Origin: an uncultured Pseudomonadales bacterium
GTDB taxonomy: Bacteria; Patescibacteriota; Microgenomatia; UBA1400; UBA1396
Reading direction: 5' to 3'
Length of the DNA: 64,000 nt
NCBI GenBank assembly: GCA_964598125.1
Contig: CAZRAG010000001.1
Coordinates: 8,810 to 72,809 of the forward strand
A program made the position numbers and the translations under genes. How positions within the stretch are numbered: the stretch's first letter is position 1; every line of letters begins with the position of its first letter. Of the stretch, positions 6,126 to 52,811 are shown in pieces. The notes beneath the pieces are model-generated. The model had not been told where the DNA came from. It was given only the letters and a program-made list of their open reading frames with translations, and ran no database searches.

Positions 6126-6252
6126 GAAACACATCCTGATTTCTTCCAATGCGGTAAGCAGTTTATCAGACCTCAAGTAATACATCCCACAACTTAATAC
6201 ACCGAAATAGAAGCTAGAACCTTGATGAGTTTTTGATATACTTTGAGGCATT

Positions 6253-6900
6253 ATGCCTCCAGAAATAACCAACATCGATTTAATCAATCTTGTCGCTGCC
6301 ATAGCCTCACTAGTTTTGGCTGTTATAGCTATTTGGCAAGCTATCCATTTTTATAACCAAGCAAAGTCTACCGAGTTAAATACCGCACTTACACTAGAAA
6401 GTATAAAGACCCAATCAACCATGCTCGAGCGCTTAACTGCTAAATGGATGGACAGATTTACTAAATACGTTACTAATCCCAGACCGATTGATGAAACAAC
6501 TACTAAACTTTTGGAGTTTATAGAAATAAGGCAGATGGCTTTAAATTTACCTTCTCCTGAAGACAGTAAACAAAAAAGCGAGTTAATTCAGGAACTTATC
6601 ACAAGCTACATAGCAGTACTTTATTATGTTGGGATATCCAATATTACAACTCAGCAACATCTCCCTGAAGCAATTGAAGACCTAGATCAAAATGAAGGAA
6701 TTAAACAAATTGTTGATCAAAGTAAAGCCGATTACGTTTATTTGAAAGGTGTATTAGCTAATATTGACCAAACTCAACTTGAATCTAGTAGACTAAAACA
6801 TTTATACGATCAAGCTCTCGGATGGAATCAATTTATAAAAGATACTGCATCAGTTTATAGTAGTAGGGCAAGCAATACAAATCAAGGAAGTGGTACCTAA
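6253..6900 (+). CDS. Membrane-anchored hypothetical protein
   Basis: 215 aa with an N-terminal TM helix (LINLVAAIASLVLAVIAIW) followed by a helical soluble domain. Confidence 0.45.
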   Translation: MPPEITNIDLINLVAAIASLVLAVIAIWQAIHFYNQAKSTELNTALTLESIKTQSTMLERLTAKWMDRFTKYVTNPRPIDETTTKLLEFIEIRQMALNLPSPEDSKQKSELIQELITSYIAVLYYVGISNITTQQHLPEAIEDLDQNEGIKQIVDQSKADYVYLKGVLANIDQTQLESSRLKHLYDQALGWNQFIKDTASVYSSRASNTNQGSGT

Positions 6901-6933
6901 TAATAAAAGCAATTCCTGATTTCCTCTACAACG

Positions 6934-34617: not shown

Positions 34618-35412
34618 ATGCCGTCCAAAGTAATGGATAGACTGATAGTCCCTGGCGAGCATTTATATCAACCCTTTTCGGAAGCTCTCCCATTGGAAGC
34701 TCGCTCAATTCCAGGCTACGCCTGACGGCATCAACTGGACAGAAAGAGTTTGTCAACAAAGCTATGCACCTCAAGTTGAAAAACATATTTTTGAAAGAGC
34801 TTCCTTTGATTTTTATGGTTCTCTACGTGCTGAACTCGACTCTATAGACCCACAGACCACCCGAGAACTCCGCCGATCGCTTCGAGATCGAGGCGTTGGA
34901 GATCCATTCATCCATCCCATTCTTCCAGACTTAAGTGACACCGATATTGTGATTGCAATGGTCATCAATCAGGTCATTGGAAAGGGCCATTTTATGCCGC
35001 ACTTCACAAATTAAATGCCGCTGTTACAAAAATACTTGAAAATGAGGTTCGTTCTGAATATCCAGAATTGATTATTCAGCAGTTTCCCAAATTACTCAGC
35101 AATCAAGGTGGACAAAATAGCAATCCAACAATATCGCTCCTCAGCGCCAAGGCCTCAAGCCTGGCTGCTCTGACAAGTTGCGGTACTTTTTTTGACAACC
35201 CACATACTGCAGGACACATCAATATTGCATTTTGTCTGCAAGCTATCATTCATCTCCAAGATGCCGGTCTCATACAAGAGGCAAACATGATTTTGCAACA
35301 GTTTGAGAGAGACTTGTCACTGGTAGAAGATCCAAATCACCCGGGAGAAAACCTCACTTCCTTATTAAATGCGCTCCTTAACGATTCCACTCCAGTAGCG
35401 GTAACTCGTTGA
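34618..35412 (+). pseudogene. Gene disrupted by two frameshifts (unknown family)
   Basis: ATG at 34618 opens a 36-codon frame ending at 34725. A protein-like reading continues in a second frame (34649-35011), then switches by -1 near 34987 into the frame of ORF 35068..35412. Confidence 0.4.
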
Positions 35413-36815: not shown

Positions 36816-37907
36816 TTATTCGTTGGATAAATTTTTTTTATAAAATTCGATTGTTCTCTGCATCGCTAAAGAAAAAGTACTACCTGTAAGGTTGTGTCCA
36901 CCTTGAGGATACTCATGAAGTTCATGGGAAATTTGGGTTTTATCAAGAAGTTGATTGAGATTCTGACCATACTGAATACTGACCACGGCATCATCGGCTG
37001 CATAATGCATCTGCACTGCGCCCTGCAAATCATTTAAGTAATTTGTAGGCACAACCTGCTGCCAAAAAAGACTCTCGGGATCAAACTGCCCGTGCATATC
37101 AAACAGAGCTTGTCGACGTTGTTGACTTGGTGATTCCTGCCTTGGCCGCTGGTACGATTGATCTTGAATGCCAAATTCTTGGAGGTCGGAATAGGTAAAA
37201 ACAGCTCCCGCCCAAATCACAATTGCCGGAATCTCGGGTTGAGCAACCGCGCTACGCAACACGACATTGCCAGCCATGCTGTGCCCCCACAAGCCAACTT
37301 TTTCCGGATTCACAAAGGATGCTGACTGGAGGGCTGCTCGCGCGTTGAGAGTATCGATAACATAATCACTGGAAAAATACGCTCCGCCAGCAATTCCTTC
37401 TGAATCTCCATGCCCACGCAGGTCAATTTTGAGTACTACAAGACCGCTCTTGGCTAAAGCATCGACGTAAGCCTGATAACGCTCCTCAGTATCATACTGA
37501 TCTGGAGGAATATATCCATGCACAAAAACTATAGCTGGCCATCCACCCTCCGGTTCTGGAGTGATAGGAATGGTGAGCAGGGCTTGGATTCGTAAGCCAT
37601 CGGATTGATATGAGGTGAGAAATGTTTCATAAGAATCATTGCGAGCAAGGCGCTCTCTTTCACCCAGCTCGCTTTGATACTTCCGTTGTCGCAAATAGGG
37701 AATGGTGAGTTCGGCGTAGGGAAAAGGGGTGGGGGACGGTGGGCCAGAGAATGCTGTTTGATTAATCGGAAAAAAGGAGTGTTTCAAAACCAGAGAAACA
37801 AAAATACTGAATGCAAGCAGTATCACTGCAGCTAGTCCGAAACGACCATGAAAAAAATGCCGGTTTTTTTGTTGGGCGGATGATTCAGAAGAACTCAGTG
37901 TCTGCAT
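36816..37907 (-). CDS. Alpha/beta-hydrolase (S9 / dienelactone-hydrolase-like) with an N-terminal TM anchor
   Basis: Nucleophile elbow GHSMAG; His and Asp lie downstream in alpha/beta-hydrolase order. Confidence 0.7.
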   Translation of the reverse strand: MQTLSSSESSAQQKNRHFFHGRFGLAAVILLAFSIFVSLVLKHSFFPINQTAFSGPPSPTPFPYAELTIPYLRQRKYQSELGERERLARNDSYETFLTSYQSDGLRIQALLTIPITPEPEGGWPAIVFVHGYIPPDQYDTEERYQAYVDALAKSGLVVLKIDLRGHGDSEGIAGGAYFSSDYVIDTLNARAALQSASFVNPEKVGLWGHSMAGNVVLRSAVAQPEIPAIVIWAGAVFTYSDLQEFGIQDQSYQRPRQESPSQQRRQALFDMHGQFDPESLFWQQVVPTNYLNDLQGAVQMHYAADDAVVSIQYGQNLNQLLDKTQISHELHEYPQGGHNLTGSTFSLAMQRTIEFYKKNLSNE

Positions 37908-38028
37908 GCTTGAAAAGCTACCCTAACACACTTGTCTGGTGATTTGTGTAAAAAATGAGTGAGAACGTTCAAGAGATCCGCTGGTTCTCCCCATAACAAT
38001 AGATTAGAATAGAGCCTATCTGGAAAAT

Positions 38029-39168
38029 ATGACTGAGAGCACACACACCCGAGGACCCGTCAGAGAGAACCGACTTTCTGAACAGTTTAACATTCCTCCT
38101 TTGTCTTCCTTGATAGTTTCTGCGCTCATAGTTCTCCTCATCTTTGCCTTCTTCAAAGGTTATATCTACAATTTTTATGCGAGCTTTCTTTTTCTTTTTT
38201 ATGGCTTCACCCAACACATGTGGGTCTCGGTTATCCTTCTTGGTGTTTTTCAAACGCTTATCCTTATTCCTTTTCGTGTTATTCGCATCTGGAAATCCGA
38301 TAATATTTCTGAATTCCAAAAATCCATCGAGGAAATGGATCATGAATCCTTTCAACGCAAAGAATTTAAGCAACGATTTGATGTTGGGAGCCTGACTTTT
38401 CTTTTCTATTTGTTTGATTTTATGGTGCAACTCACAACCTTCCTTACTATTGGAAGACTTTTCCTGACAAATTTTTACCAATACCCTTTGGCAGAAAAAA
38501 TTCTCTATTCCTTTGTTCCGTATCCGGAATATCCTATTCAACACACGTTTTTCAAGCTCCCATATGTAGCGGTAACCAATACCATCGATTTGGGGTGGCG
38601 AGTACTGATACCAGTTTGGGCGGTCATTCTCCTTTTAGCCGGATACTATCTGTATCAACGCCGACGAAAGGAAGCGGAAAATACTGGCTCAACAGGATCA
38701 AGATACGCCTGGGCGTACATTTTCATCATCATGGCAGTAACCTGGTTTGTGGTCAGACACTTCCCCGTTGGTTGGCAACTCCAGATTTTTTCTGGAGACG
38801 TGAGCCAGCCAAATAGGACTCTGAATTTTGTTACGGCCATTGTTACCTTTCTTACATTGCTCTGGTTTGGAGCACAAAAAATTATTCGAAAAGGCAAACT
38901 TGCCCGGGAACAAGGCATTCCCTCTACAATAATAAATAGAACTCAGAAGAATATGTTTGGGCAATCTATTTTTGACTCGTTACTCGTTGGATTAGGTGCT
39001 TTCTTTATTACGAATCAAATTCCCTCTGCCTTTGAACTTTCCATTTTTACTTTAGAAGTTATCTCATTATTTTCACCATTTACACTCGATAAGTTGATTC
39101 ATCGAATAAAAGATAGAGTGGTCAACCCAACTCCAGTGGCAGCCAGCTCTGAGACAAGTTCAGAGTGA
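38029..39168 (+). CDS. Polytopic membrane protein (faint YidC/Oxa1-like pattern, unconfirmed)
   Basis: 379 aa with at least 6 hydrophobic helices. The overlapping antisense lysine-rich ORF 37969..38544 is judged spurious. Confidence 0.5.
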   Translation: MTESTHTRGPVRENRLSEQFNIPPLSSLIVSALIVLLIFAFFKGYIYNFYASFLFLFYGFTQHMWVSVILLGVFQTLILIPFRVIRIWKSDNISEFQKSIEEMDHESFQRKEFKQRFDVGSLTFLFYLFDFMVQLTTFLTIGRLFLTNFYQYPLAEKILYSFVPYPEYPIQHTFFKLPYVAVTNTIDLGWRVLIPVWAVILLLAGYYLYQRRRKEAENTGSTGSRYAWAYIFIIMAVTWFVVRHFPVGWQLQIFSGDVSQPNRTLNFVTAIVTFLTLLWFGAQKIIRKGKLAREQGIPSTIINRTQKNMFGQSIFDSLLVGLGAFFITNQIPSAFELSIFTLEVISLFSPFTLDKLIHRIKDRVVNPTPVAASSETSSE

Positions 39169-39169
39169 G

Positions 39170-40141
39170 ATGAGTTCTGGCCAAGCAAGTACTATCATGA
39201 AAAATGGGCAGTCATTAAAGGGTACCTCTTCAAACCCAAACTCTTTAGCAAACATCGGCTACACTCAAAATTTTTTACGAGATACCAAACTTGTTGAAAC
39301 CTTGATCAACAAGTCAAATATCACTTCAGGGATTACAGTTCTCGAAATTGGCCCAGGAAAAGGAATTATTACTGAAGCATTGGCAAGACGGGTTGGTCCG
39401 ACTGGTCGGGTAGTGGCAGTTGAGTTTGATCCTCATCTCGCAATGCAACTCCGCGCACGCTTTACTGATTTATCCCAAGTAAACATCATTCAACAAGATA
39501 TTCTTTCTTTTTCATTGGACTCTCTTCCTCATAATTACCGAGTTTTTGCCAATGTTCCCTTCAACATCACCGCCAAAATTTTTCATTATATCTTCCAGCC
39601 TCTTTCTGGACCCCAGGATGCTTACCTCATTGTCCAAAAGGAGTCTATTCAGGAAGTAGGACAAAAAAAAGAACCAAGAGCCACCCTGAAGTCTCTTTTC
39701 CTGGAACCCATCTACCAAATTCGGCTCATTCACACGTTCTCTCCCCATGATTTTTCTCCTCCTCCAGGTGTGAAAACTGCACTCTTTCATTTCCAAAAAA
39801 AAACGCCACCAGCCCTCACTGCGCAGCAATACACACAGTTTTGCGACTTTCTGGCTTTTATCAGCCGAGATCGGATAGGTGAGGGATCCTGGCTGCGACT
39901 ATTTTCCAAAAAGGATTTGAGAAGCATGGTAGAGAAAAATCGTCTTCTCTGGGGCAGGGGCCTAAAGTCGCAAGCTGGGCACAGTCTCATGACAGCATTT
40001 CTCAATACCGTGGCCCAAGATGAAATGTTACAAAAAAAAGTTGTGGGTGCGCTTAAGGTTCTACAAAAAGAACAAGAAAAAAGAGAGTTAATCAATTTTT
40101 TTGGTGGACACCACCGCTCGAAAATGGAAAAAAAACGTTGA
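39170..40141 (+). CDS. Erm-family 23S rRNA adenine N6-methyltransferase-like protein with a ~75-aa C-terminal extension
   Basis: QNFL (Erm-type; KsgA has QHFL). SAM motif LEIGPGKGIITEAL. The sequence RVFANVPFNITAKIFHYIF parallels ErmC [20 protein letters not shown]. Confidence 0.7.
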   Translation: MSSGQASTIMKNGQSLKGTSSNPNSLANIGYTQNFLRDTKLVETLINKSNITSGITVLEIGPGKGIITEALARRVGPTGRVVAVEFDPHLAMQLRARFTDLSQVNIIQQDILSFSLDSLPHNYRVFANVPFNITAKIFHYIFQPLSGPQDAYLIVQKESIQEVGQKKEPRATLKSLFLEPIYQIRLIHTFSPHDFSPPPGVKTALFHFQKKTPPALTAQQYTQFCDFLAFISRDRIGEGSWLRLFSKKDLRSMVEKNRLLWGRGLKSQAGHSLMTAFLNTVAQDEMLQKKVVGALKVLQKEQEKRELINFFGGHHRSKMEKKR

Positions 40142-40218
40142 TCTAAAAATAATTTTACTAGCTTCGCTTACAGCAACTTTTCCTAACTATTACCAATTTC
40201 ACATGTTGTCCTTGAATA

Positions 40219-41403
40219 ATGAAAATCACGGAAAGGACAACGGACTCGATGAATATTGCCATGGTATCAAGTCCACATGTTCCTGTTCCTCCAAAAAAAT
40301 ATGGTGGCACGGAACGAGTGGTCTACGCCCTTATTAAGGGTTTAAGTGAGCTCGGTCATAAAGTATTTTTGCTTGCTCCAGGTGACTCCGATGTTTCAGG
40401 TCTCAATTGTGAACTTATTCCCATCACTCCTGAACACATTTTTTTTGGGAAAGATAAGTTGAGCCAGGAAAAAGTTGAGGCAGAAACACAAAAAATTCGC
40501 CAACACACAAAACAATTACTGAAGGAAGTTCTTCCTGAGGTAGACATCATTCATTCACACGGCTTTGATCTCATCGATTTTCAAGATTTTCCCAACCTCA
40601 CCACCTTACATGGCATGTTTCTCCTGGAAAAAATGGACTATTTTGAACAGCGCCGAGGATTAAACTTTGTAAGTATCTCAAAAAACCAGCAAAATTCTTT
40701 TCCAGATCTGCAGTATGTTGGTGTTATTTATAACGGACTCATTCCTGAGCGCTTTCCCTTTAATCCTGATCCGCAAGAGTATGTGTGTTTTTTAGGAAGA
40801 TTCGATCGAGAAAAGAACCCTCATGAAGCCATCAGCTTGGCCGTTCATCTGGGCATACCAATCAAACTCGCTGGAAAAATTGATTTTTTAGGAAAAGATT
40901 ACTTTGAGGAAGAGGTACAACCACATTTTGATAATCCACTTGTAAGTTATTTGGGTGAGCTTGAATTACCAGAAAAAATTGAATTGCTCAAAAATGCTGT
41001 CTGCAATTTACATCCGGCAAATTTCCGCGAGCCTTTTGGGTTGACTGTCATGGAAGCTGCCTACTGTGGAACTCCCACCTTGGCAATTCGCCGCGGTTCA
41101 ATGTCAGAGCTTATCGAAAATGGTCGAACTGGCATCCTCGTTGAGGACTTTGCCGAAGGGTATCATCGCCTTGAAGAGATACGTGAGTTTGACCGAAGGT
41201 ATATTTCTCAGCGTGCCAGAATGCTGTTTAACTACAAAACTATGAGTCGACAGTACGAATATGCTTACCAAGAAGTTATTGCTTCTCAGAAAAAGTCTTC
41301 CTCTCTGACCAACGGCAAAGCTGAACACATGAACAAGCTCCGTCAGGAAATAACGGCCATTTGGAATGAAAGACACGGTACACAGAATAGTTCTGAAATC
41401 TAA
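40219..41403 (+). CDS. GT4-family glycosyltransferase
   Basis: N-terminus MNIAMVSSPHVPVPPKKYGGTERVV, with a C-terminal E-x7-E region (FREPFGLTVMEAAYCGTP). Confidence 0.75.
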   Translation: MKITERTTDSMNIAMVSSPHVPVPPKKYGGTERVVYALIKGLSELGHKVFLLAPGDSDVSGLNCELIPITPEHIFFGKDKLSQEKVEAETQKIRQHTKQLLKEVLPEVDIIHSHGFDLIDFQDFPNLTTLHGMFLLEKMDYFEQRRGLNFVSISKNQQNSFPDLQYVGVIYNGLIPERFPFNPDPQEYVCFLGRFDREKNPHEAISLAVHLGIPIKLAGKIDFLGKDYFEEEVQPHFDNPLVSYLGELELPEKIELLKNAVCNLHPANFREPFGLTVMEAAYCGTPTLAIRRGSMSELIENGRTGILVEDFAEGYHRLEEIREFDRRYISQRARMLFNYKTMSRQYEYAYQEVIASQKKSSSLTNGKAEHMNKLRQEITAIWNERHGTQNSSEI

Positions 41404-41409
41404 CATCAA

Positions 41410-43239
41410 CTAGACCTGTAGCTTTTTAATCGCTGCATACTCTCGGACGATTCTAAGAAAGCCCACTGCCGACCAGAGCTGTAGCAAACTCATCTGTCCT
41501 TCGGCAGCTTCTTGATCCACATAAAACCTGGCTTTATCAAGATCTCGATCATAGTAATAGAGCTCGGGAATTGCTTCTAACTGCTCAAATCCCCGCAGGC
41601 TTGCCTCACAGTTAAGGGTAATACTCTGGTAGAGCGTATCCATTACTACTTCGGGCCACGAATATTTCATCCCTTTGCGATACTGCTTGGCCATACCTGC
41701 AATCGCAAAGGCAGCTTGTTTTGGCCAAATGACTTTTCCATGATAATGGCGTTCATCGAGATAAGGATTCTTTTGAGAAACAAGAATTGGTCCCACAGGA
41801 GTATAAAAATATTTTGGGGACATCATTCTTTTGGCAAAACTCACGACGTCTTCCAGTGATGGCTGCCCATAAAAAAGGGCGTAGCCTTCATCAATATGGG
41901 CAATTTTGAGTGTCCGTAGAGGATTGCCATGAAGTGCTAAAGCATATCCCTGAATGTGGAGGGGCTCAGTCAGGAGGTATTGATAGTGAACACTTGCCCA
42001 ACGTCGCATAATTTTTCGTAATTGTCGCGTTTGCGAGATATGCAACATTTCCCGGAAACGCCAGATCGTTCGTAAAGCTTCAGGATAAAAAACACAGTTC
42101 ACGTCATAGGGGGCTAAAGGTTGTTCATGTTGGTAAAAAGCGTCCTCACTGTCCCGCCAATTGCCGACTTTGTAGTAGGCCCCTGGCTCATTCTGAATCT
42201 CCTTGAAAGTAATATGCTCATTTTTTTCGGCTTTATTTATAAGGAATTCCGCCACAGCCTGGAATTTTTCCTGATTCGATTCGCGAAGAAGGAATTGTTT
42301 AGAAACGGTATTCAAGCTGAGAATATACAGTGGCTCAATATCCACCATCTTTCGATCCACCCATTCATCTTTTCCCACAAAATTTCGATACTCACCAATG
42401 ACTTCTTCATGCCATCCCTCACCTCCTTTGAGGTGTTTCATAGATTGCTCAACCATAAAATCTCGAGCAGCATGGGTAAGATCTTTTTCGCCAAGAAGGG
42501 CAGACTCAATCCAGTCACGAGGGAAGATAGTCCCAAACTCAAAACTACTCGTCCGGCTCGTGGAAACCAAGAAGTGAACTTGGCGACGCACTTCCTGCAC
42601 CATTCTCAGGATAGTTTCCGAAAATAAACCTGGGTCAAGCGCCAGTGGTTTATAGAGAATTTGTTCAATCTTTTCAGCAGACGGCACGGTTTTGGTATTA
42701 CTTTCGATCACGAACTCGACGGGTTGGGCATCATTATTGGTAATGGTAAGGGTATCGGCGGTCTGGGTGACCGTACAGTTTTGGGGAAAAATAACGTTTG
42801 CTCCATAGGTATTTTCTTCACCCTGAAAATCCCGATACGTTCGACTGAGGCGCAGCACTTTTCCTGACTGATATGGCAAAGTTAATGAATCCGAGTTTAT
42901 TTGCTCATACGAAACAAACTCTCGTACCTGCGGCAAGAGTTCAGCAATTTTTTGCGAGGCAAGTTCAAGATAACTGGGTTTATTGGCCGAACCCTCGGTG
43001 TATTTACGCAACGTCCGAATATTGCAGACAAGGGGCTGAGAAATGGTTACTTCGGGGGCTTCAAATTCCAGCGTGAGCTGAATGACATGTTCATCAAAAA
43101 TAACCGCTTCGCCAAAATTAACTTCTGACTGATGAAAAATAGAAAAGCCCAACAAAAGATGATTGTTTGGACCGGTTAAACGAAACTGATTCCGAGAATC
43201 AATGTCAAAATAGTAATCACTGAGAATCCCATACTTCAT
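41410..43239 (-). CDS. Hypothetical protein; possible (alpha/alpha)6-barrel glycoside hydrolase (GDE_C / GH63-like)
   Basis: ATG at 43239 (MKYGILSD...). C-terminal HGKVIWPKQAAFAIAGM and GQMSLLQLWSAVGFL resemble amylo-alpha-1,6-glucosidase-type barrels. Weak call. Confidence 0.45.
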   Translation of the reverse strand: MKYGILSDYYFDIDSRNQFRLTGPNNHLLLGFSIFHQSEVNFGEAVIFDEHVIQLTLEFEAPEVTISQPLVCNIRTLRKYTEGSANKPSYLELASQKIAELLPQVREFVSYEQINSDSLTLPYQSGKVLRLSRTYRDFQGEENTYGANVIFPQNCTVTQTADTLTITNNDAQPVEFVIESNTKTVPSAEKIEQILYKPLALDPGLFSETILRMVQEVRRQVHFLVSTSRTSSFEFGTIFPRDWIESALLGEKDLTHAARDFMVEQSMKHLKGGEGWHEEVIGEYRNFVGKDEWVDRKMVDIEPLYILSLNTVSKQFLLRESNQEKFQAVAEFLINKAEKNEHITFKEIQNEPGAYYKVGNWRDSEDAFYQHEQPLAPYDVNCVFYPEALRTIWRFREMLHISQTRQLRKIMRRWASVHYQYLLTEPLHIQGYALALHGNPLRTLKIAHIDEGYALFYGQPSLEDVVSFAKRMMSPKYFYTPVGPILVSQKNPYLDERHYHGKVIWPKQAAFAIAGMAKQYRKGMKYSWPEVVMDTLYQSITLNCEASLRGFEQLEAIPELYYYDRDLDKARFYVDQEAAEGQMSLLQLWSAVGFLRIVREYAAIKKLQV

Positions 43240-43452
43240 TTTTTTGTTTCTATTACGGGTAGGTAGTAAGTAAAACAGTTTGAAGTGTAGCCCTACTTTC
43301 CAATAATTAGAGGGAAAATTCGTAAAATTCTGGTAAGAATATGCCAGAAACTTGAATTTTGAGCATTTAAAGTGGCACATTCCTGTTCTTACACCGTTCT
43401 TAAAAACAACCAGTAGGGTAGTGTCTATTCAAAAAGAAAGGATGATTCTGCT

Positions 43453-44319
43453 ATGAAGCAATTCCTCTTTACGCCACTGGTGGTGGCTCTGGTAGGAGCG
43501 GCCGTCTTTGCCGTCAGCCAACCAGTGCTCGCCTCGGTGGCCCCCGTTTGGGATCAAGGATTCGAAGAGTCGACAGATGGTTGGCTTGACTCCAGTGATG
43601 CCTGGTATGGCGAGATTACTCGAGTTCCTTCTGGTACTGATGGTATCGTCGCCTCTAGAGGTGACTGGTTTGCCTTGGTGGAAGGTGATAGTGATTCCGG
43701 ACCATTTTCTCGTTTTGATGGCTATCGCGATGAGTGGCCAGGAGAATGGGTGTCGGAAATCGATGTGTATCTGGACCCAAGTTGGGCTGCTGGCACAGGG
43801 TTTGATTACTCGGTATCAGCTAACGGAACCGACAATAATCACCAACGAGACTTCATTTTCCATGTAACCAAGGATACCTCGACAAACGAACTTTTGGTGG
43901 GTGGTTCGAATAACTCCAACTTTGCGGTTCGTGAAGACCTCGAAAACATCAATCACTACGTCGTCACTTCTGCTGGGTGGTACACCTTACAACACGTTTT
44001 TCGAGATGATGGGGGAACTTTAGCCGTCGATCTCCGACTGCTCGATGATGAAGGTAATGTTCTGTTCACGGAGACAAGAAATGATCCCACTGATCTTATC
44101 CCTTCTGAAGTTGGTGGTAATCGCTATTCATGGTTCACCTTCATTACCGTGGATGGTCTCCCGATAGATGAGCACCAACTCCTCATGGATGTTCCGGATA
44201 AGAATGACATGCTTCTCGAGAGTGGCGTTCCAGGAAGAGGTATTGAGAATGCTCCTGGATTGCAAAAACCATTTAACCCCAAATCGCAAGCGGCTGAGCA
44301 TGCTGGCAAGAAAAAGTAA
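43453..44319 (+). CDS. Secreted hypothetical protein
   Basis: Signal peptide MKQFLFTPLVVALVGAAVFAVSQPVLA. 288 aa. Confidence 0.5.
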   Translation: MKQFLFTPLVVALVGAAVFAVSQPVLASVAPVWDQGFEESTDGWLDSSDAWYGEITRVPSGTDGIVASRGDWFALVEGDSDSGPFSRFDGYRDEWPGEWVSEIDVYLDPSWAAGTGFDYSVSANGTDNNHQRDFIFHVTKDTSTNELLVGGSNNSNFAVREDLENINHYVVTSAGWYTLQHVFRDDGGTLAVDLRLLDDEGNVLFTETRNDPTDLIPSEVGGNRYSWFTFITVDGLPIDEHQLLMDVPDKNDMLLESGVPGRGIENAPGLQKPFNPKSQAAEHAGKKK

Positions 44320-44345
44320 GTTATTTTACTAAAGCTCTTTAAAAG

Positions 44346-44372
44346 GTGCCTCCAAACGGGGGCACTTTTTTT
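44346..44372 (+). terminator. Intrinsic terminator
   Basis: ggtgcc-tccaaacgg-gggcac followed by ttttttt. Confidence 0.6.
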
Positions 44373-44454
44373 GATTTTTCATCTTGTCACAACAAAGACT
44401 ATTGTATAATCCGGTCAACCTTTATTGGCTTATGCTGAAGGAGAATCTGCAAAG

Positions 44455-44586
44455 ATGTGTGATTCACCCCGTTGCAAAGGCCCCGACACGGAAAAATTGC
44501 AACCGCGTTGTGGAGGACGAGTCAAGTGGTTTTGCGAGAAATGCGCAAAAATAATGAAGGCCAGAGGTTGGGTGAAGTGCCGATAG
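44455..44586 (+). CDS. Small zinc-ribbon-like protein (43 aa, four CxxC-type Cys pairs); absent from the ORF track
   Basis: SD aaggag lies 11 nt upstream. Translation is MCDSPRCKGPDTEKLQPRCGGRVKWFCEKCAKIMKARGWVKCR. Terminators flank it on both sides. Confidence 0.45.
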   Translation: MCDSPRCKGPDTEKLQPRCGGRVKWFCEKCAKIMKARGWVKCR

Positions 44587-44635
44587 CGATACCTCATCCG
44601 ATCTCACATCGTAGCTGAACCCTGTTCAGCCATCA

Positions 44636-44672
44636 CCCCAGTCGGGTAACCGGCTGGGGATTTCTTTTTTTT
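44636..44672 (+). terminator. Intrinsic terminator
   Basis: ccccagtcgg-gtaa-ccggctgggg followed by atttctttttttt. It is preceded by a second hairpin (gctgaac-cct-gttcagc). Confidence 0.6.
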
Positions 44673-44916
44673 AAACACACCCCGCATCAATTTAGATGTA
44701 TCAGTTAGAAAACTTCGAGAGACCTCTCTCGCCATTTCTTCTGTTTCCAACTGTACTTGCTTAAATAGCAGGAAAATATCGCTTTCTCTTTTCTCTATCA
44801 TATCCTATAATACTAGACTTGTTCTCAAAAACATTGATATCTACGTCTTTTGCTTTTTGAGAGCAGCTCGTGAACATGTTAACGATTTTATTTTTCGAAT
44901 GCACAGGAGGTGTATT

Positions 44917-45327
44917 TTGCTTATACGCGCGATTCAGTTCGCGGCGGCTCATCAGCGATTTTTGCTGTTTGCCGTTATCGGAGGATACGTCACCCTGCAA
45001 GGGGCGGCTATCCTGTGGTTATTAGTCGAGGCCGAATTACGGCCTGAAATCGCCAACATAGGTCAAATGATTGTAAGCATCGAAACAAATTTCTTTGCCA
45101 ACAACTGGCTGACCTGGCGTGACCGGCGTGAGCGCTCGCTGTGGGACCGCTACAAACGATTCCACTTTGCCAAGATAGGAACAGTGGTGCTCAACAGCCT
45201 GCTGTTCGCCGCCCTGATCTGGCTAAAGATTCCCTACATGTTGGTGTACATCATCAACGTGGGAGTCTTTACCGCGATCAACTTCCTGGTAAATGAAAAG
45301 TTTGTGTTCAAAAAGGAAGGTGCGTGA
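44917..45327 (+). CDS. GtrA-family small membrane protein (polyprenyl-P-sugar flippase-like)
   Basis: Four TM helices, GtrA-like. The listed ORF starts at 44857; TTG at 44917 has an aggagg SD 6 nt upstream. High GC. The stop overlaps the next start as ATGA. Confidence 0.6.
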   Translation: MLIRAIQFAAAHQRFLLFAVIGGYVTLQGAAILWLLVEAELRPEIANIGQMIVSIETNFFANNWLTWRDRRERSLWDRYKRFHFAKIGTVVLNSLLFAALIWLKIPYMLVYIINVGVFTAINFLVNEKFVFKKEGA

Positions 45328-46418
45328 TGATTATGCCGACGAAAGTGTCGGTGATCGTCCCTCTCAGAAACTCTGGCGCCCATATTACTGGGTTGCTGGA
45401 TTCTCTCCTTTCCCAAGATTACCCCAGCTTCGAAATACTGTTGGTAGGTAATCAGGGCGATACAACCTGGTCGGCTCTGCCAAGTGACTTGGACCCACGG
45501 GTTCACATCATAGAGGTTGAGCTACCCGAAGGTTGGATGGGCCGCGACTCCAATTTCAAACGGAATCGCGGTGCCGAAGCCGCAACGGGCATCGTCCTGT
45601 TTTACACGGACGTCAAAATCCGCCACCAACCAGACTGGATCAGTACCGGTCTGCGCTTGATGCGCGAAAACCAGGTTGAGGCAGTTGCCGGCATCATGCT
45701 CGGCACAGCGGAATCGACTCAGAGTTTTTTGGGTCGCTTCACTGATAGCGCCCTCATCCGGCGCAATCCAGATTTTGGACAAGGTTACATCCTGAATGCC
45801 CAGAATTTTGGTAATCGGGAAAGTCTCCCCATCACCGCCTGCTGGGCGATGACGCGAGCCGCCTATGAAAACATGGGTGGCTTCGACGAAGACGCTCGTG
45901 ACTCATATGAAGACTACATGAGTGCGTGGAGAGCTGTCCGGGCTGGAGTCGAGTTCTTCGTCAGTAATCTCTGGACGGTTTTCCATAAGCACCGATCGAA
46001 ATTCAAACCAATGCAGCTGGAGTACGCCCGGTCTGCCCGTGGCGCAGCCCAGATGTTCGCCACCTATCCAGATTGCCCGTTCGGCCGCCGGCGTGCCGCT
46101 CAAGTCACCATTGTTCTCGCCATGGTGTTTGTTGGCGTGGTGACACTACTCATATCTCTCGTAGCCTTGGCGTTGGGAAACTGGCAGATCCTCGCTGGAT
46201 TATCAGCAATCGTCACAGCACTGTACGTGCTCGCTGGCACTGCCAATACGGTCAAGGCCCATCACTGGCAGGGATTTTTCTTCCCAGCCTTGACTGGCTG
46301 GTTTATTCTCTGGTTCGCCCTGCATTTTGCGCAGAAATTGCGCGAAGGTGGAGGAGTATCCAAAAACAATAGGTGGTTGCAAACAATGTTCTCTTTAGTC
46401 CTTCCGGGGGTGAAGTAA
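45324..46418 (+). CDS. GT2-family glycosyltransferase with C-terminal TM helices (GtrB-like polyprenyl-phosphate sugar synthase)
   Basis: N-terminus VSVIVPLRNSGAHITGLLDSLLSQDYPSFEILLVG in a GT-A fold, with 2-3 C-terminal TM helices. Confidence 0.75.
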   Translation: MMIMPTKVSVIVPLRNSGAHITGLLDSLLSQDYPSFEILLVGNQGDTTWSALPSDLDPRVHIIEVELPEGWMGRDSNFKRNRGAEAATGIVLFYTDVKIRHQPDWISTGLRLMRENQVEAVAGIMLGTAESTQSFLGRFTDSALIRRNPDFGQGYILNAQNFGNRESLPITACWAMTRAAYENMGGFDEDARDSYEDYMSAWRAVRAGVEFFVSNLWTVFHKHRSKFKPMQLEYARSARGAAQMFATYPDCPFGRRRAAQVTIVLAMVFVGVVTLLISLVALALGNWQILAGLSAIVTALYVLAGTANTVKAHHWQGFFFPALTGWFILWFALHFAQKLREGGGVSKNNRWLQTMFSLVLPGVK

Positions 46419-46420
46419 CC

Positions 46421-47839
46421 ATGAAAACAAAAACGGCCATGACCATCCTGGTCATTGTTTTGCTGGCTGCAGGCCTGCGGCTAGCATTTATGGGCGTAAC
46501 TCCGTGGGACTGGGATGAACCGGTATATACGCGGATCGCCAACAATGTTCAGTCCATGGGTCATCCCAGTCTGGATATTGGCGGGGAAGAGGAATGGTAT
46601 ACCTACCATCCCCCCTTCCATTTCTGGCTTTTGTCCGGGTGGTACGCCCTCATCGGCGATGATACCATCTGGGCGGGGCGCTTGTTCAGCAGCCTAGCTG
46701 CCACAATTTGTGTAGTTTTGTTGATGGTTCTGGTCTGGGAAATCAGTCAGGACAAGCAACTCACCCTTTTTGCCGGATTTCTTTTTGCAACGGATGGCTG
46801 GTTTGGCTACACGAGCTTGCTCGTGAAACTGGACACCACCGCGGTTGCGATTGGGATCGCCGGCCTTATCCTGTTCGTGCAGGCGCTCAAAACCCCAAAA
46901 ACCGGCCTATTTATAGCGACCGGTTTAGTTATTGGGATAGCAACAATCTACAAGCACGTTGCGGCTGTTTTTCTCCTGACGATCGCCATTCATTGGCTGA
47001 TCACAAAGGGAAATCGCAGACAACATCTCATCGTCCTCGCTGCCGCGGGCTTCGTTATCGTCCTGTACATCCTAGGTATGGCGATTTTTGTGGGTGAACC
47101 TTTTACCCACGCTACCGTTGTTCAGGTCCGCAGAACGCTCGGACAGCAAGAGGCTCGTGGTCTGCAGTATGGCCTGGTCGAAACGCTCCAAGCGATGTTC
47201 AATACCTACTGGGCATTCAGTGGCACCGTACTTGTTCTATTCATCGGAGGCATCATATCCATATGGATGGGCAGACTCCACTGGCAGGGAGAGGAACACT
47301 GGCTAGCAGTCATCACCGCTTGGGCGCTCGCCGCCCTCTTGATGCTCGGCGGGATCAAGCTACGAAATCCGCATTACCTCGTGTATGCAATTCCACCCGC
47401 AACCGTGCTCGTAGCTGAGTTTTTGCTTGGCCTGATTGAACAGCGTCGCAACAAACTGGCTGGCCGCTTGCTGGCTGTGCTGCTTGTGATGAGCTTTAGT
47501 ACCTTCAGCATCCGTGCAACACGTTTTTCACCCACCAATGCACTGGGAGAGCTCCAATACCAAATGGATCAACTCCCTGCGGACGTGACTGTACTCTCTG
47601 AGGAAAGCATCTGCGCTCTGATCGATCAGCCCTGTTATCCCTTCGGGCACTACCAGACTGCCGGACAGATCGCCTCTATCCCTGGAGGAAAACCGCAATA
47701 TGTGGTCGTGTACACCACGACCACGCAAAAGCCACCCCAAACTGAGGCGGTGTTGGAGCTTATCTCAGAAGGTCAGGTTATCTACTCCATCTCTGGGTGG
47801 AAAGAAACCTTGACCATCATCCAGGTCGAGAGTCCATGA
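46421..47839 (+). CDS. GT83/GT39-like (ArnT/PMT-type) polyprenyl-phosphate-sugar-dependent glycosyltransferase
   Basis: N-terminus MKTKTAMTILVIVLLAAGLRLAFMG...WDEPVY. 10 or more TM helices, ArnT/PMT_2-like. Confidence 0.7.
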   Translation: MKTKTAMTILVIVLLAAGLRLAFMGVTPWDWDEPVYTRIANNVQSMGHPSLDIGGEEEWYTYHPPFHFWLLSGWYALIGDDTIWAGRLFSSLAATICVVLLMVLVWEISQDKQLTLFAGFLFATDGWFGYTSLLVKLDTTAVAIGIAGLILFVQALKTPKTGLFIATGLVIGIATIYKHVAAVFLLTIAIHWLITKGNRRQHLIVLAAAGFVIVLYILGMAIFVGEPFTHATVVQVRRTLGQQEARGLQYGLVETLQAMFNTYWAFSGTVLVLFIGGIISIWMGRLHWQGEEHWLAVITAWALAALLMLGGIKLRNPHYLVYAIPPATVLVAEFLLGLIEQRRNKLAGRLLAVLLVMSFSTFSIRATRFSPTNALGELQYQMDQLPADVTVLSEESICALIDQPCYPFGHYQTAGQIASIPGGKPQYVVVYTTTTQKPPQTEAVLELISEGQVIYSISGWKETLTIIQVESP

Positions 47840-48026
47840 CCTGGTCGTTAACATGTTTGACAATTCGGGGGGTGTGGTTAGCAATAACTGCATCTCCCGT
47901 TTTCTTTTTTTGTAAGAAATTTGTAAATAAAGTGTGACTTTTTTTCGGGAAAAGGTGAAGTCCCTGGGAGGGACTTTCGGTATGAGCCAAGGGCTTTCGC
48001 CCAAGGCATGTTTTCCGACCACACGA

Positions 48027-48299
48027 TTAGCTTGCGCTGGACGCGGCGTCCAACTTCCAATCGGCGGTCAGCCATTTGCTCAAGCCACGCAAGGCGAGCA
48101 CAATCAAGGCCAAACCGAAAACGGCGGGTACAACAGCAAGCGGCCCATGCGACGCGCACAGCGCCGACAGACCGAGTATGATCACACCAGCCGCCGAAAA
48201 AAGGGTATCGCTTGCGACTTCGCCGACCCACTTGAGCCGACGAACCAATACTGCTGCGACCAACAAGATCACAACCAGTGCGACAAGAAAAAGCTCCAT
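48027..48299 (-). CDS. Small membrane protein
   Basis: ATG at 48299 with SD ggagg about 10 nt upstream. Two to three TM helices. High GC. Confidence 0.4.
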   Translation of the reverse strand: MELFLVALVVILLVAAVLVRRLKWVGEVASDTLFSAAGVIILGLSALCASHGPLAVVPAVFGLALIVLALRGLSKWLTADWKLDAASSAS

Positions 48300-48408
48300 G
48301 GTATTTCTACCTCCGCTTTCCATCTAACCCTCCCAGGCTTCCCCTATATTATACGCTATAGGATCAAAAAATAGCTTGATTTACACAAGAAAAGAGTAAG
48401 AGGAGGGC

Positions 48409-51400
48409 CTATAAGCTGGCTGAGTCCGTGGCAACAGGAGTCTCAATACTTGCCTCAGACGTGGCTACGCTCTCCTGCGCCAACACAATTGACGTTGGCT
48501 CAGGTTGGATTATGGGACTGGGAGTAGGGGAGTTATTGAGGATAATCACCGGGTCTGGACTGTCTGATTGAATCGCAGCTGGGACAATGACCGGTGTGTC
48601 TCCAACAGACGTGTTCGGAGTATCAACCTGTAAAGCGATCCAAGAAAAGCGGGTTCTTTGGGTAGCTGGACCGTTCAAAACAATGCGGAAACTGTTGGGG
48701 GTGACGTCAGTTATTACAAAGCGTTGGCCACTAGAAAAGACAGCGTCTATAGAATCTTCACTCGTTAACATTTGGCTGACATTTACAATAGGCGCAACAG
48801 AGTAAGGACGATCAAAGGTCACCACTACTTCTTGGGCGGCTGGTTGAATGATAGCTAAGCCAGCAGTTTCGGTGGAAAATTCAGGAGCACGTCGAAAACG
48901 AGCAACACCGGCAAACACCACCTCCTTAGAAAAGGTAACGAGCTGCTCAAACTGAGCCTGTCCAACCGCAAGAAATTTCCCCAGTGATTGCAGTGTTTGC
49001 TTCACGGCAAAATTATCAGTTTCATCCGGAAAAACAACCGCCTGGCTTTCTGGTTCAACCGCGGCTGCTTGCTCCAAAGCAGCCACATCCGCAGTGAGAA
49101 GGTTCATCTTAAGGTAAAGACCCTGCACACCAGCCAAGGCAATCCCCGAGGGATCAATGGTTGAAATTGAGGTGTTATTATTCCCCAAACCAAAAATGGT
49201 ATAAAAATCTTGAGCCATTGGTCCAAAGTGGCGAACATTTTGGTCAACTTCCGTCTTAAAACTCCACTCTACTAAAGGAAGCGCGGCAATTTTATCTAAA
49301 ATAAGGTCGTTATCTAAATCGATAAAATTCGTTTTCAAGTTACGGTCAGAGGCGTTTGTCCAATCACCTCCAGCGGTAACATAGGCACCGCTGGCCATGT
49401 GAAGAGGACCCAAAGTTGGTGCTATACCGATCCCCATTTTCCCTGTTGAATCAATGGTTACGGCTGTACCTTGGCCAAAAGAGGAGTTATTTACATTGAA
49501 TTTAATACTTTTACTATTGCCGCCTTGAATGACAGCAGCTGATCCATCATACCCAACCATCATTCGAGTGCTCTGAAAATCAATATATCCAGTAGAGTTA
49601 GCGCCTGAACCAAATTTTCCTGAGAGACCATCAAAAGCAACATGGAACCGCGCCAAAGGATCTGTCGTTCCAATACCTACTTCGCCGGTAGTTGCTTTGG
49701 GCATAACAATAACATTACCGGTTGCCCCGCCCCCCAAAGTCAGATCACCATCACCACTAGTTTGTACACTGGAAGCAGCACTAAATGTTAAGGCCCCACT
49801 TGAAGTAATATTCCCAACAGACACAATATGTCCGCTACTATCTACTTGGAACTGAGAGGTTTCGCCAACACTAAAAAGAGAAGTGGGCGTAACGGTGCCG
49901 ATTCCAACGAGTCCTGTCGGCATGATAGTGACAGCCGTTCCTTGACCATAAGAAGAATTACCAACATTGAGCTTCACCCCTTTACTTGGACCTCCCTGTA
50001 AAACAGCGTAAGAACCATCATACCCAACCATGGCGCGATTACTCTGAAAATTCAGAAAAGAGCGAACGTTTGTTCCTCCCCCAAAAAAAGCCGTTTCATC
50101 ATCACCATAGACCCGCAAAGTACCTGTCCCGGCATTCACGGCAAATGATTCTGTTGTCGTGCCATCTCCTTTATGGATAACAAAACGACGCTGACCACTA
50201 GTATCCGTTTCTCGCAGCCAACGAACGGTCACATCCTTGGTTGCGTCGATGGTTTTGGCATCCAGAGACATCACCGTCATGTCGTTTGTACCTAGCTCAG
50301 TAACCCATTGGCCAATGTTGTAGCTTGCCGTTTTGGCAGCATTCGTCATGTTATGCACCATCTGAATTCGGTCGCCATAATTGTTGTGAACACCATACGT
50401 ATCTACGTTGCTGTAAAGAACATGAGCCAAGTCACGGTTATAGTCGATGGCATACCGAGTAAGCATGACACCTGGTTGGCTGCCGTTAGGATCGGCAGCT
50501 GTTTTCAATTCCCACCGATTGTGAGTATCACCATCGGTGTAGTTCACTCCATGAATGCCAAAGGCCGCCACATGTCGTCCTGTAGAATCAAGGCTGCTGA
50601 TCCAGGGACGATCATACTGACTCGTGGCTTGAAGGATAATAAGCCGAGAGATACTTCCCGTAGTCGGCGTATTCGCTTTGAGTTTGATACCATAGTTTGT
50701 GCTCACTCGAAGATCTCCATTCACTTCCAGGGTTGAAGTTGGATTACTCGTGTTGATACCCACTTTGCCATTACTCACTACGAGCTGATTGGAACCTACC
50801 TGCAAACCATTGGATGGTAGCGATAGTGAACCGGTAGCGGAAAACCAGGCTAAAGCATTACCTGAATTACTCTGTAATTGCAAAAGAGAACTGGAAGATT
50901 GATTGCTTGCTCCCCGAATTACCAGTTGTTTCTCATCAGTGTCACCCAAAATAGTGACTTTCCCCAGTGTTGATCCATTACCAATAACAACATCTGAGGT
51001 TGGAGTGCTAAGGCTCACTGAGTTTGTCAAAGAATTCCAACCATTCAGTGTGGCAGAAGTAATGGTATTTTCAATGGTGATGACATCCTCATCTGCGTTG
51101 AGAGAAAGGTTAATACCATTGCCAGCCTTGAAAGTAAGTGTATCGTTGTTTTGATCTGCACCCAGCGTTTCTGAGTCATTGACTTTTATAGTTTTAAAAA
51201 TTGACTGGCTGGAACCAAGGTCAGAATTTTTGATAATCCCATCTTGCAAAAAAAGACCATCACTTGCCGTCAAACTTAATACTCCCGTATTGCTGATAAA
51301 GTTTCCCGAAATCGCAATGCCTTTACCAGCTTGCCAGATTTCACTTGGTGGATCTGATGGGGGAATGAGTTCTGCAAAAATCGACTGAAGATCACTTGCT

Positions 51401-51660
51401 GTGAATGAGCTCAGCATGATCTCTTTGAACTCCTCATTGCTGAGTCGTAGAGGACTTATAGAACGAGTTGCATTGTCAAAAGCAGGACCATTGCCCAAAA
51501 TTTTTGAAACCGAAGAAAGCGGTTTATCAAACCAACTTGCCACAACAATTTGATCAGGAGAAATCAGTCCATACTTGGCCAAAACGAGCGAGGAGCTAGT
51601 CATGGAAACAACTGCAGAAGTAAACACCAACCACCACCAACGACGCAACGACTTCCACAT
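48409..51660 (-). CDS. Large secreted tail-fibre-like / adhesin protein with a peptidase S74 (intramolecular chaperone auto-processing) domain
   Basis: 1083 aa with a signal peptide. Internal ~70-aa repeats are present. ASDRNLKTNFIDLDNDLILDKIAALPLVEWSFK...GPMAQDF at aa ~770-865 (nt ~49066-49368) matches the endosialidase/tail-spike chaperone domain, with the predicted autocleavage Ser in the SDRNLK motif. Confidence 0.7.
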   Translation of the reverse strand: MWKSLRRWWWLVFTSAVVSMTSSSLVLAKYGLISPDQIVVASWFDKPLSSVSKILGNGPAFDNATRSISPLRLSNEEFKEIMLSSFTASDLQSIFAELIPPSDPPSEIWQAGKGIAISGNFISNTGVLSLTASDGLFLQDGIIKNSDLGSSQSIFKTIKVNDSETLGADQNNDTLTFKAGNGINLSLNADEDVITIENTITSATLNGWNSLTNSVSLSTPTSDVVIGNGSTLGKVTILGDTDEKQLVIRGASNQSSSSLLQLQSNSGNALAWFSATGSLSLPSNGLQVGSNQLVVSNGKVGINTSNPTSTLEVNGDLRVSTNYGIKLKANTPTTGSISRLIILQATSQYDRPWISSLDSTGRHVAAFGIHGVNYTDGDTHNRWELKTAADPNGSQPGVMLTRYAIDYNRDLAHVLYSNVDTYGVHNNYGDRIQMVHNMTNAAKTASYNIGQWVTELGTNDMTVMSLDAKTIDATKDVTVRWLRETDTSGQRRFVIHKGDGTTTESFAVNAGTGTLRVYGDDETAFFGGGTNVRSFLNFQSNRAMVGYDGSYAVLQGGPSKGVKLNVGNSSYGQGTAVTIMPTGLVGIGTVTPTSLFSVGETSQFQVDSSGHIVSVGNITSSGALTFSAASSVQTSGDGDLTLGGGATGNVIVMPKATTGEVGIGTTDPLARFHVAFDGLSGKFGSGANSTGYIDFQSTRMMVGYDGSAAVIQGGNSKSIKFNVNNSSFGQGTAVTIDSTGKMGIGIAPTLGPLHMASGAYVTAGGDWTNASDRNLKTNFIDLDNDLILDKIAALPLVEWSFKTEVDQNVRHFGPMAQDFYTIFGLGNNNTSISTIDPSGIALAGVQGLYLKMNLLTADVAALEQAAAVEPESQAVVFPDETDNFAVKQTLQSLGKFLAVGQAQFEQLVTFSKEVVFAGVARFRRAPEFSTETAGLAIIQPAAQEVVVTFDRPYSVAPIVNVSQMLTSEDSIDAVFSSGQRFVITDVTPNSFRIVLNGPATQRTRFSWIALQVDTPNTSVGDTPVIVPAAIQSDSPDPVIILNNSPTPSPIIQPEPTSIVLAQESVATSEASIETPVATDSASL

Positions 51661-51705
51661 ACTTTCATAGTAGCGGAATACCTGAGAAATCTGAAGTGTA
51701 AATCC

Positions 51706-51951
51706 ATGGATATCATATTTAACTCATCTAAGACACCAATGATGTTATACTTTAAACACATGGCGAGACGACTGGTCATTGACGAAAATTTAAACAGTCA
51801 TTGGGTGGATGAAAACAATAGGCTCATCCCAGAAGAACCGGAACAAAAAGTTGATCAGATACCTCTAACTCATGAAAGTTCGGTTCAACAAATCATCGAC
51901 TTTATTGAAACACTCCAACCTGGAGAACACCTTGTTTTTTTTTGGCGCTAA
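51706..51951 (+). CDS. Small hypothetical protein
   Basis: The listed ORF 51550..51951 overlaps the start of the large gene; the internal ATG at 51706 (MDIIFN...) is used instead. Confidence 0.3.
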   Translation: MDIIFNSSKTPMMLYFKHMARRLVIDENLNSHWVDENNRLIPEEPEQKVDQIPLTHESSVQQIIDFIETLQPGEHLVFFWR

Positions 51952-52811
51952 ACATACCTCTTGAATATCTTGTGTCGGAAATAGGTGATCGTCCTCGATC
52001 TTACGAATTTGGCGGTTTTTTCAATCCAAGTACACGAGAAATAAGTATCGTTCGTGGTTTCGAAAATGACACGTATGGACCATTTACCGGTGTTGGCGTA
52101 AATTTCAAGCCAGAATTAATCTCCAGAGACGAACAAGGCAGGGTTAGTGGTCTTTTCTGGCATACGCACCCATGGAACCAGGTTGCATCGACACTTGGTG
52201 GCAAGCGGGAAGTTGATAAAAATCGCTGCCTTCCAGGAGACAGAGATAATACGATTCTCATGGCTATGTCTCGAATTGAACAAGAGGAGGGTCATGGTGG
52301 TACCCCTCTCGTATCAATTATTGGTTCTAAAGGATATATCAGCATTACCACCGCCAGTGGACTTGCTTGGAATCGAGAACAATTTCTATCGGCTCAAATA
52401 CCGACAGAGACCGTTGAGGCTCTAGAGAAATCACTCGGCATTGTTCCTCCCATCTGGATTCGCAACCTGGCATCCCCAGGAAAAGAAGATGAATTGTTTG
52501 GTGAAGTTAAAGGCTACTATCAAAAAAAGTTAGCTTTTGATGGCAGTTTTTCGAGTGAAATTGACGTTTTTTTAGACGGATTAGAGCAGAACAGTCTCTT
52601 GAATGCGGCCTGGGCAAGCCGCAGGTACAGCTCTGCTCGATTGTCACTTCGAGCAGAAATGCTCCATTCGCTCCCTGATTTTTCTTTCCGCTGGTTAGAA
52701 AGTCGAGGTCTCACCACAGAACAAGTTCAGCTTGTGAAAACACAAATTGGCATTCAAACACAGGTCTATACTGTGAACGAAGCTGGCCAAAAAACAGTAG
52801 CTCTTTCGTAA
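51942..52811 (+). CDS. Hypothetical protein (contains an FWHTHPW motif)
   Basis: 289-aa ORF. The HTHP motif is faintly reminiscent of JAB/MPN metal sites, but the rest of the signature is not satisfied. Confidence 0.45.
   Translation: MALNIPLEYLVSEIGDRPRSYEFGGFFNPSTREISIVRGFENDTYGPFTGVGVNFKPELISRDEQGRVSGLFWHTHPWNQVASTLGGKREVDKNRCLPGDRDNTILMAMSRIEQEEGHGGTPLVSIIGSKGYISITTASGLAWNREQFLSAQIPTETVEALEKSLGIVPPIWIRNLASPGKEDELFGEVKGYYQKKLAFDGSFSSEIDVFLDGLEQNSLLNAAWASRRYSSARLSLRAEMLHSLPDFSFRWLESRGLTTEQVQLVKTQIGIQTQVYTVNEAGQKTVALS

Follow-up and report, generated by a model that had tools for sequence, protein, structure and literature searches.

The locus

The window, by which we mean the whole 64,000-nucleotide (64-kb) stretch of DNA analyzed, encodes a predicted rRNA adenine N6-methyltransferase behind a membrane-protein gene. 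The features discussed below are as follows.

38029..39168, + strand: membrane-protein gene, 379 aa, multi-pass, no Pfam match
39170..40141, + strand: predicted Erm(42)-like RrnaAD-family rRNA adenine N6-methyltransferase gene, 323 aa plus stop (ATG at 39170, TGA at 40139-40141)
39170..39259, + strand: N-terminal residues 1-30 of the methyltransferase, unconserved in the alignment; pLDDT 34-43, predicted to be disordered
39260..39802, + strand: catalytic Rossmann domain, residues 31-211, with motif X QNF, motif I EIGPGKG, E85, D110 and motif IV NVPF (Pfam/NCBIfam matches, column analysis, structural model)
39803..40012, + strand: C-terminal helical domain, residues 212-281 (alignment; hhalign against Erm(42)-type C-terminal domains)
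40013..40138, + strand: Erm(42)-type C-terminal extension, residues 282-323 (structural model, multiple alignment with Erm(42) and relatives, hhalign, charge count)
40219-41403: GT4 glycosyltransferase gene, downstream of the methyltransferase
41410-43380: 656-aa ORF, also downstream, without a significant family match
55666-56844: HflX GTPase gene, whose best named relatives are labeled "Patescibacteria group bacterium" (63% identity) and "Candidatus Woesebacteria" (56%)

The ORF at 39170-40141 is clearly a genuine gene and not a chance ORF, because its product matches RrnaAD (Pfam PF00398) at E 1e-40 over residues 27-256, has some 70 homologs of 295-315 aa (41-49% identity over about 90% of its length), and yields a confident AlphaFold2 model (mean pLDDT 87). 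The model was built on an alignment of the methyltransferase and its relatives (n = 25), in which 40 columns are invariant. Column analysis found every SAM-binding and catalytic position kept, namely Q33, N34 and F35, E59, G61/G63/G65, E85, D87, D110, N128, P130 and F131. The three motifs listed in the first-pass annotation are present in the order it gave: QNFL (T32-QNFL-36, 39263-39277), LEIGPGKG (L58-EIGPGKG-65, 39341-39364), and NVPFNIT(A) (N128-VPFNITA-135, 39551-39574). Two further motifs, D234-R-x-G-E-G-x-W241 and G264-x-K-x-Q268, are invariant in the C-terminal domain of the subfamily; both are missing from Erm(42).

Placement within the Erm/KsgA family

We compared the protein with the curated models for the two sides of this family. 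It scored 168.8 bits with Erm23S_rRNA_broad (NCBIfam NF000499; curated cut-off, 212), 140.7 bits with the Erm42 model (NF000077; cut-off, 600), and 126 bits with the ksgA model (TIGR00755; cut-off, 171). As neither the Erm cut-off of 212 nor the KsgA cut-off of 171 was reached, it would receive no more specific name under the NCBI scheme than "rRNA adenine N(6)-methyltransferase family protein". The ranking of both Erm models above the ksgA model was repeated in five subfamily members, whose Erm scores (146-176 bits) all lie below 212. By the same model Erm(42) itself scored 255 bits and a Ktedonobacterales relative 239 bits; the subfamily scores lower than the Ktedonobacteria and plasmid members of the Erm(42)-like clade.

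The first-pass annotation had taken QNFL as a mark of Erm and QHFL as a mark of KsgA, a distinction that fails: in public records, KsgA from E. coli, Neisseria, Acetoanaerobium, and Azospirillum has GQNFL in every case, and Coxiella KsgA has QHFL. The query in fact has the fold and the SAM-binding and catalytic motifs, QNFL included, in common with KsgA/RsmA, and differs from them in its C-terminal domain, its sub-cut-off score, its position in the trees, and the absence of the QRRK motif; the C-terminal AFx[QK]RRKxL signature occurs in 4/4 KsgA references and is missing from the methyltransferase. Whatever the enzyme's target, then, short motifs such as QNFL are no guide to Erm versus KsgA, and the two are separated instead by the C-terminal domain together with profile and tree placement.

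Phylogenetic placement, which the first-pass annotation had proposed as a check, was done with a full-length neighbor-joining (NJ) tree (100 bootstraps) of 87 sequences, comprising four KsgA proteins, ErmA/B/C/F/46/42 with further annotated Erm drawn from plasmid records, and genomic and metagenomic relatives. In this tree, which is a distance tree with four KsgA sequences only, the query subfamily received 100% support inside the Erm radiation, adjoining a large Erm(42)-like group, and the split between {ErmA/B/C/F, Erm(42)-like, query} and {KsgA plus actinobacterial Erm} received 90%. With the catalytic domain (176 columns), the subfamily and all Erm(42)-like proteins formed a clade in 75/100 NJ bootstraps; a grouping of the subfamily with KsgA was seen in 0/100. 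Catalytic-domain identities run the same way, at 40-41% to Erm(42)-like proteins, about 29% to actinobacterial Erm, 28% to ErmA/B/C, and 26% to KsgA. The earlier call of Erm-type rather than KsgA was borne out by the profile ranking, the NJ placement, and the alignment with Erm(42) described below.

A structural search (Foldseek) against the PDB returned ErmE (6nvm) as the top match at E 2.5e-18, but KsgA, Dim1, and TFB1M matched equally well, so that the fold search has no power to separate Erm from KsgA. Taken together, profiles, trees, and alignments place the protein as a predicted RrnaAD-fold SAM methyltransferase on the Erm side of the Erm/KsgA family, where it is best classed with the Erm(42)-like branch, as one of its divergent members.

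Relationship to Erm(42) and the C-terminal extension

By alignment, the closest characterized relative of the methyltransferase is Erm(42), which is reported as a proven 23S rRNA A2058 monomethyltransferase of Pasteurella/Mannheimia ICEs and enterobacterial plasmids (Desmolaize et al. 2011, Mol Microbiol 80:184, as cited in PMC6028734). The two proteins are homologous over their full length: BLASTP aligned residues 29-321 of the query at 34% identity (E 5e-46), and in a tblastn search against plasmids the erm(42) match covered residues 32-321. They have in common EIGPGKGIIT, a motif IV of the form N-[IV]-P-F-N-I-T (NIPF in Erm(42), NVPF in the query), the KDFLAF stretch that opens the C-terminal domain, and extra C-terminal helices with a basic tail. 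They differ in that the query has E162 where Erm(42) has K (the ErmC' R134 position), carries its own invariant C-domain motifs, and falls far short of the Erm42 cut-off; moreover, the query gene is chromosomal in an uncultured lineage and not on an IS or ICE, and its function is a prediction. Under erm nomenclature, members of the same class are 80% or more identical, and at 34% the methyltransferase lies outside the Erm(42) class.

At 323 aa, compared with 244 aa for ErmC, the protein has 79 extra residues, which fall into three parts. The first is the N-terminus of about 30 residues, unconserved and predicted to be disordered (pLDDT below 50); M10, at 39197, could be the alternative true start. 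The second consists of a few residues in small internal insertions relative to ErmC. The third, about 42 residues (282-323), is the C-terminal extension, modeled as helices at 285-291 and 294-311 followed by the basic tail GGHHRSKMEKKR. The first-pass annotation, which had put the protein at about 75 aa longer than canonical Erm and assigned this length to a C-terminal extension, was therefore right about the length and only partly right about its location.

Nor is the extension a feature of this protein's own; Erm(42) and hundreds of Erm(42)-like proteins end in a homologous region. Using hhalign, residues 212-323 matched profiles of the Erm(42) group with a probability of 96.6% (E 5e-10, 107 columns) to the very C-terminus, and those of other Erm(42)-like proteins with 97.7%. 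The same region gave 53.6% against ErmA/B/C, over 44 columns only, 1.9% against the C-termini of actinobacterial Erm and ErmF, and 0.8% against KsgA. Because the BLASTP match reaches residue 321 and the profile match runs to the C-terminus of Erm(42), the extension is best read as a known trait of the Erm(42) branch, whose members combine a length of about 290-310 aa with extra helices and a basic tail, rather than as something novel.

The actinobacterial enzymes offer a second comparison. NVPF is also the motif IV of PikR1 and PikR2 (PMC6787224), and ErmE is the top structural match of the query model. Basic low-complexity tails in ErmE, PikR1, PikR2, and Erm38 have been proposed to aid in binding 50S precursors (PMC6787224); these tails, however, are long, Gly/Arg-rich, and disordered, and the hhalign comparison indicates that they are not homologous to the helical extension of the query.

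Candidatus phyla and metagenomes were already known to harbor many members of the Erm(42)-like branch (PMC8914350). Published assays of such genes in E. coli are mixed: erythromycin resistance went up with a family 46-50% identical to Erm(42), UGF46 giving a 2.3-fold rise, and UGF122 gave no phenotype (Lund et al. 2022, PMC8914350). The query belongs to the same broad clade as these Candidatus-phyla and metagenome genes, UGF46 and UGF122 included, but its subfamily (Anaerolineae plus the query's CPR lineage) stands apart as a group of its own, at 100% bootstrap support, in the full-length tree.

RNA-contact residues

Three basic residues of ErmC' that bear on activity have no basic counterpart in the query. 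In ErmC, erythromycin resistance is lost with R134A and lowered with R112A or K133A, and Erm38 mutants at the equivalent residues lose >90% of activity (PMC8844858). The query has H139, Q161, and E162 at the R112, K133, and R134 positions, and subfamily-wide the residues there are E/D, I/Q/V/L, and G/E/A/D, respectively. At the R134 position, R is found in 4/4 KsgA proteins, and K or R in 6/6 reference Erm, in 9/9 of the Erm(42) group, and in 32/45 other Erm(42)-like proteins (10 of which have M), whereas the query subfamily is never basic (G/E/A/D). Erm(42) keeps only the K equivalent to R134, the other two basic residues being gone; since it still methylates A2058 in the absence of two of the three, these residues are not absolute requirements. 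The loss of all three in the subfamily, together with its own C-domain motifs (DRxGEGxW and GxKxQ), would nonetheless leave room for altered RNA recognition.

Genomic setting

The stop codon of the upstream membrane-protein gene (39166-39168) lies one base before the ATG of the methyltransferase, which makes that gene a likely operon partner and leaves no room for a leader-peptide attenuator. An Rfam scan of the window returned one tRNA only, with no leader or riboswitch, and a promoter and terminator scan of 37700-40500 gave counts equal to shuffled expectation.

The window probably comes from a Patescibacteria/CPR bacterium. Anaerolineae had at first been taken as the host on the strength of the methyltransferase's nearest named homologs, an assignment given up once the relatives of HflX indicated Patescibacteria. 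The contig L096, which carries the closest homolog (P0002), is syntenic with the window. There, too, the orthologous methyltransferase gene (6001-6918) directly follows the membrane-protein gene. Identities between the two contigs are 78.6% for the membrane protein, 77% for a 290-aa protein, 84.7% for a DEAD helicase, 65% for a flavodoxin, and 78.5% for HflX; for the methyltransferase the figure is 48.5%. At about 48% against 65-85% for the flanking orthologs, the methyltransferase is among the fastest-evolving genes of the syntenic block. As it is found in L096 behind the same membrane-protein gene, we conclude that the gene is chromosomal and vertically inherited in the lineage of the window and L096, and its GC content (0.427), which matches that of the window (0.436), gives no sign of recent transfer. 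In more distant contigs, recognized by HflX at 63-65% identity, no RrnaAD gene was present within 10 kb, and synteny was lost.

Outside the orthologous CPR contig, no conserved partner gene was found across ten subfamily loci, and neither near the methyltransferase nor across these loci were there macrolide-related, PKS/antibiotic biosynthesis, or mobile-element genes. A tblastn search with four KsgA proteins, covering the 64-kb window and the fetched loci, matched only the methyltransferase itself, a result that speaks for those 64 kb and not for the sequence beyond them. Of the adjacent genes named in the first-pass annotation, the GT4 glycosyltransferase is indeed present at 40219-41403, but the one described as glycoside-hydrolase-like is the 656-aa ORF with no significant family match.

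Abundance and distribution

We searched a profile against 1.84 billion representative proteins; the matches are given as clusters at 50% identity. RrnaAD-type clusters numbered 27,866 at E up to 0.001 and 15,776 at E up to 1e-10. About 670 clusters at E up to 1e-30 correspond roughly to the Erm(42)-like supergroup, and about 15 at E <1e-80 to the query's own subfamily. The rarity of the subfamily (about 15 clusters against 15,776) fits an accessory gene rather than a universal housekeeping one. Among the matches listed, the nearest named homologs are from Anaerolineae MAGs, and Erm(42)-like relatives are from Saccharibacteria, Dojkabacteria, Microgenomates, Nomurabacteria, Ktedonobacteria, and Clostridia.

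Two observations concern other members of the Erm(42)-like group. Among the matches listed, near-identical 303-309-aa Erm(42)-like proteins occur in many gut Clostridia and Bacilli MAGs (loci L014-L054) and in Lachnoclostridium, Faecalibacterium, and Anaerostipes (loci L078-L082); this recurrence across different gut Firmicutes genomes suggests that Erm(42)-like genes are mobile in the gut microbiomes of animals. Separately, an Erm(42)-like gene stands beside the IS91-like element ISVsa3 on a Phytobacter IncC plasmid (L085, 992-1864) and on a Paenalcaligenes plasmid (L032). Although this ISVsa3-adjoining gene scores 213.5 bits, just over the Erm cut-off, its annotation goes no further than "rRNA adenine N(6)-methyltransferase family protein"; it may be one of the families assayed by Lund et al.

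Predicted function and alternatives

We hold, with modest confidence, that the methyltransferase most likely methylates A2058 and gives some MLSB protection. SAM would be bound in the Rossmann domain and the target adenine flipped against the NVPF motif, and A2058 of 23S rRNA would be methylated in assembling 50S subunits, so that macrolides, lincosamides, and streptogramin B bind less well. The C-terminal helical domain, with the Erm(42)-type extra helices and basic tail, may add RNA contacts. Expression would be constitutive, with the gene as the second of a two-gene unit behind the membrane-protein gene. We infer the target nucleotide, the degree of methylation (mono- versus dimethylation), and the resistance phenotype from sequence. 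Against A2058 methylation and MLSB resistance stand the Erm score below 212 bits, the loss of the R112/K133/R134 equivalents, the lack of a phenotype for UGF122, and the absence of a macrolide-related neighbor, mobile element, or leader peptide at the locus.

A serious, though less likely, alternative is that the protein is an Erm-derived paralog with a changed RNA-recognition surface, which would modify another rRNA adenine or make a housekeeping modification intrinsic to the ribosomes of some Anaerolineae and CPR bacteria, and would not give classical MLSB resistance. Such a role is favored by the subfamily-wide loss of the basic residues that matter in ErmC, by the invariant DRxGEGxW and GxKxQ motifs that Erm(42) does not have, by a chromosomal gene of host-like GC that is syntenic in two related contigs and free of mobile elements and leader, and by the behavior of UGF122, an Erm(42)-like family without resistance in E. 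coli. It is opposed by Erm(42), an A2058 methyltransferase that has just one of the three basic residues, and by the rarity of the subfamily, which speaks against a housekeeping role; moreover, we know of no RrnaAD enzyme with a third bacterial target. At about the same level of confidence, the Anaerolineae/CPR subfamily might be a distinct Erm(42)-like offshoot in which its own C-domain motifs replace the basic residues; its members would then act elsewhere than at A2058, or modify the ribosome intrinsically, and not serve in resistance.

It is improbable that the gene encodes the housekeeping KsgA/RsmA (the 16S rRNA A1518/A1519 dimethyltransferase), made divergent by fast CPR evolution. The proteins share a Pfam family, KsgA, Dim1, and TFB1M do as well as ErmE in the fold search, a KsgA-like "QKE" follows the strand at 150-156, and large CPR surveys give about one "erm" match per genome, probably with KsgA included; but the TIGR00755 score lies below both its cut-off and the Erm score, no bootstrap replicate joined the subfamily to KsgA, the C-terminal domain shows no KsgA similarity and is without the AFxQRRKxL signature, and the family is rare rather than universal. 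Firmicutes have KsgA, and among the matches listed cultured Firmicutes also carry Erm(42)-like genes. Least credible of all is a decaying or inactive gene copy, to which the identity of 48% (against 65-85% for the syntenic neighbors) might point, but the ORF is unbroken, none of the 40 subfamily-invariant residues and none of the SAM-binding and catalytic motifs has been lost, the structural model is confident, and pairwise identities of just 20-30% are typical of Erm proteins that share a function (PMC6787224).

If A2058 is methylated, as the favored assignment holds, a chromosomal and vertically kept Erm class would be added to an uncultured, probably CPR lineage, and the gene would help to map the environmental reservoir that may have given veterinary and enterobacterial pathogens their mobile Erm(42)-type genes. 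A functional enzyme would represent a new Erm class, given 34% identity against the 80% limit of the nomenclature. If A2058 is not methylated, homology-based "erm" calls, at about one per CPR genome, would prove to over-predict resistance, and the protein could lead to an rRNA target new to the family. CPR genome surveys have reported thousands of such "erm" matches, approximately one per genome, and MLS resistance has been assayed neither for any of these nor for a member of the query subfamily (PMC8651080; bioRxiv 10.64898/2026.07.13.738296).

Additional features of the window

Two blocks of the window are missing from L096. The first consists of the GT4 gene and the 656-aa ORF (40219-43380) and is an insertion unrelated to the methyltransferase. 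The second, at approximately 44300-52800, encodes GtrA, GT2, and PMT_2 glycosyltransferases, as well as a protein of 1083 aa that has a Peptidase_S74 (endosialidase chaperone) domain and weakly matches H-lectin. Both blocks look like lineage-specific cell-envelope or surface insertions.

Upstream, at 34618-35409 (+ strand), lies the remnant of a GH57 glycoside hydrolase gene, probably a pseudogene. Its intact L096 ortholog of 455 aa matches in three pieces and frames (aa 1-19, 19-118, and 275-455) at 57-79% identity, with aa 119-274 missing. Finally, a 622-aa protein encoded at 6992-8860 (- strand) has a Schlafen group 3 DNA/RNA helicase domain (E 2e-97).
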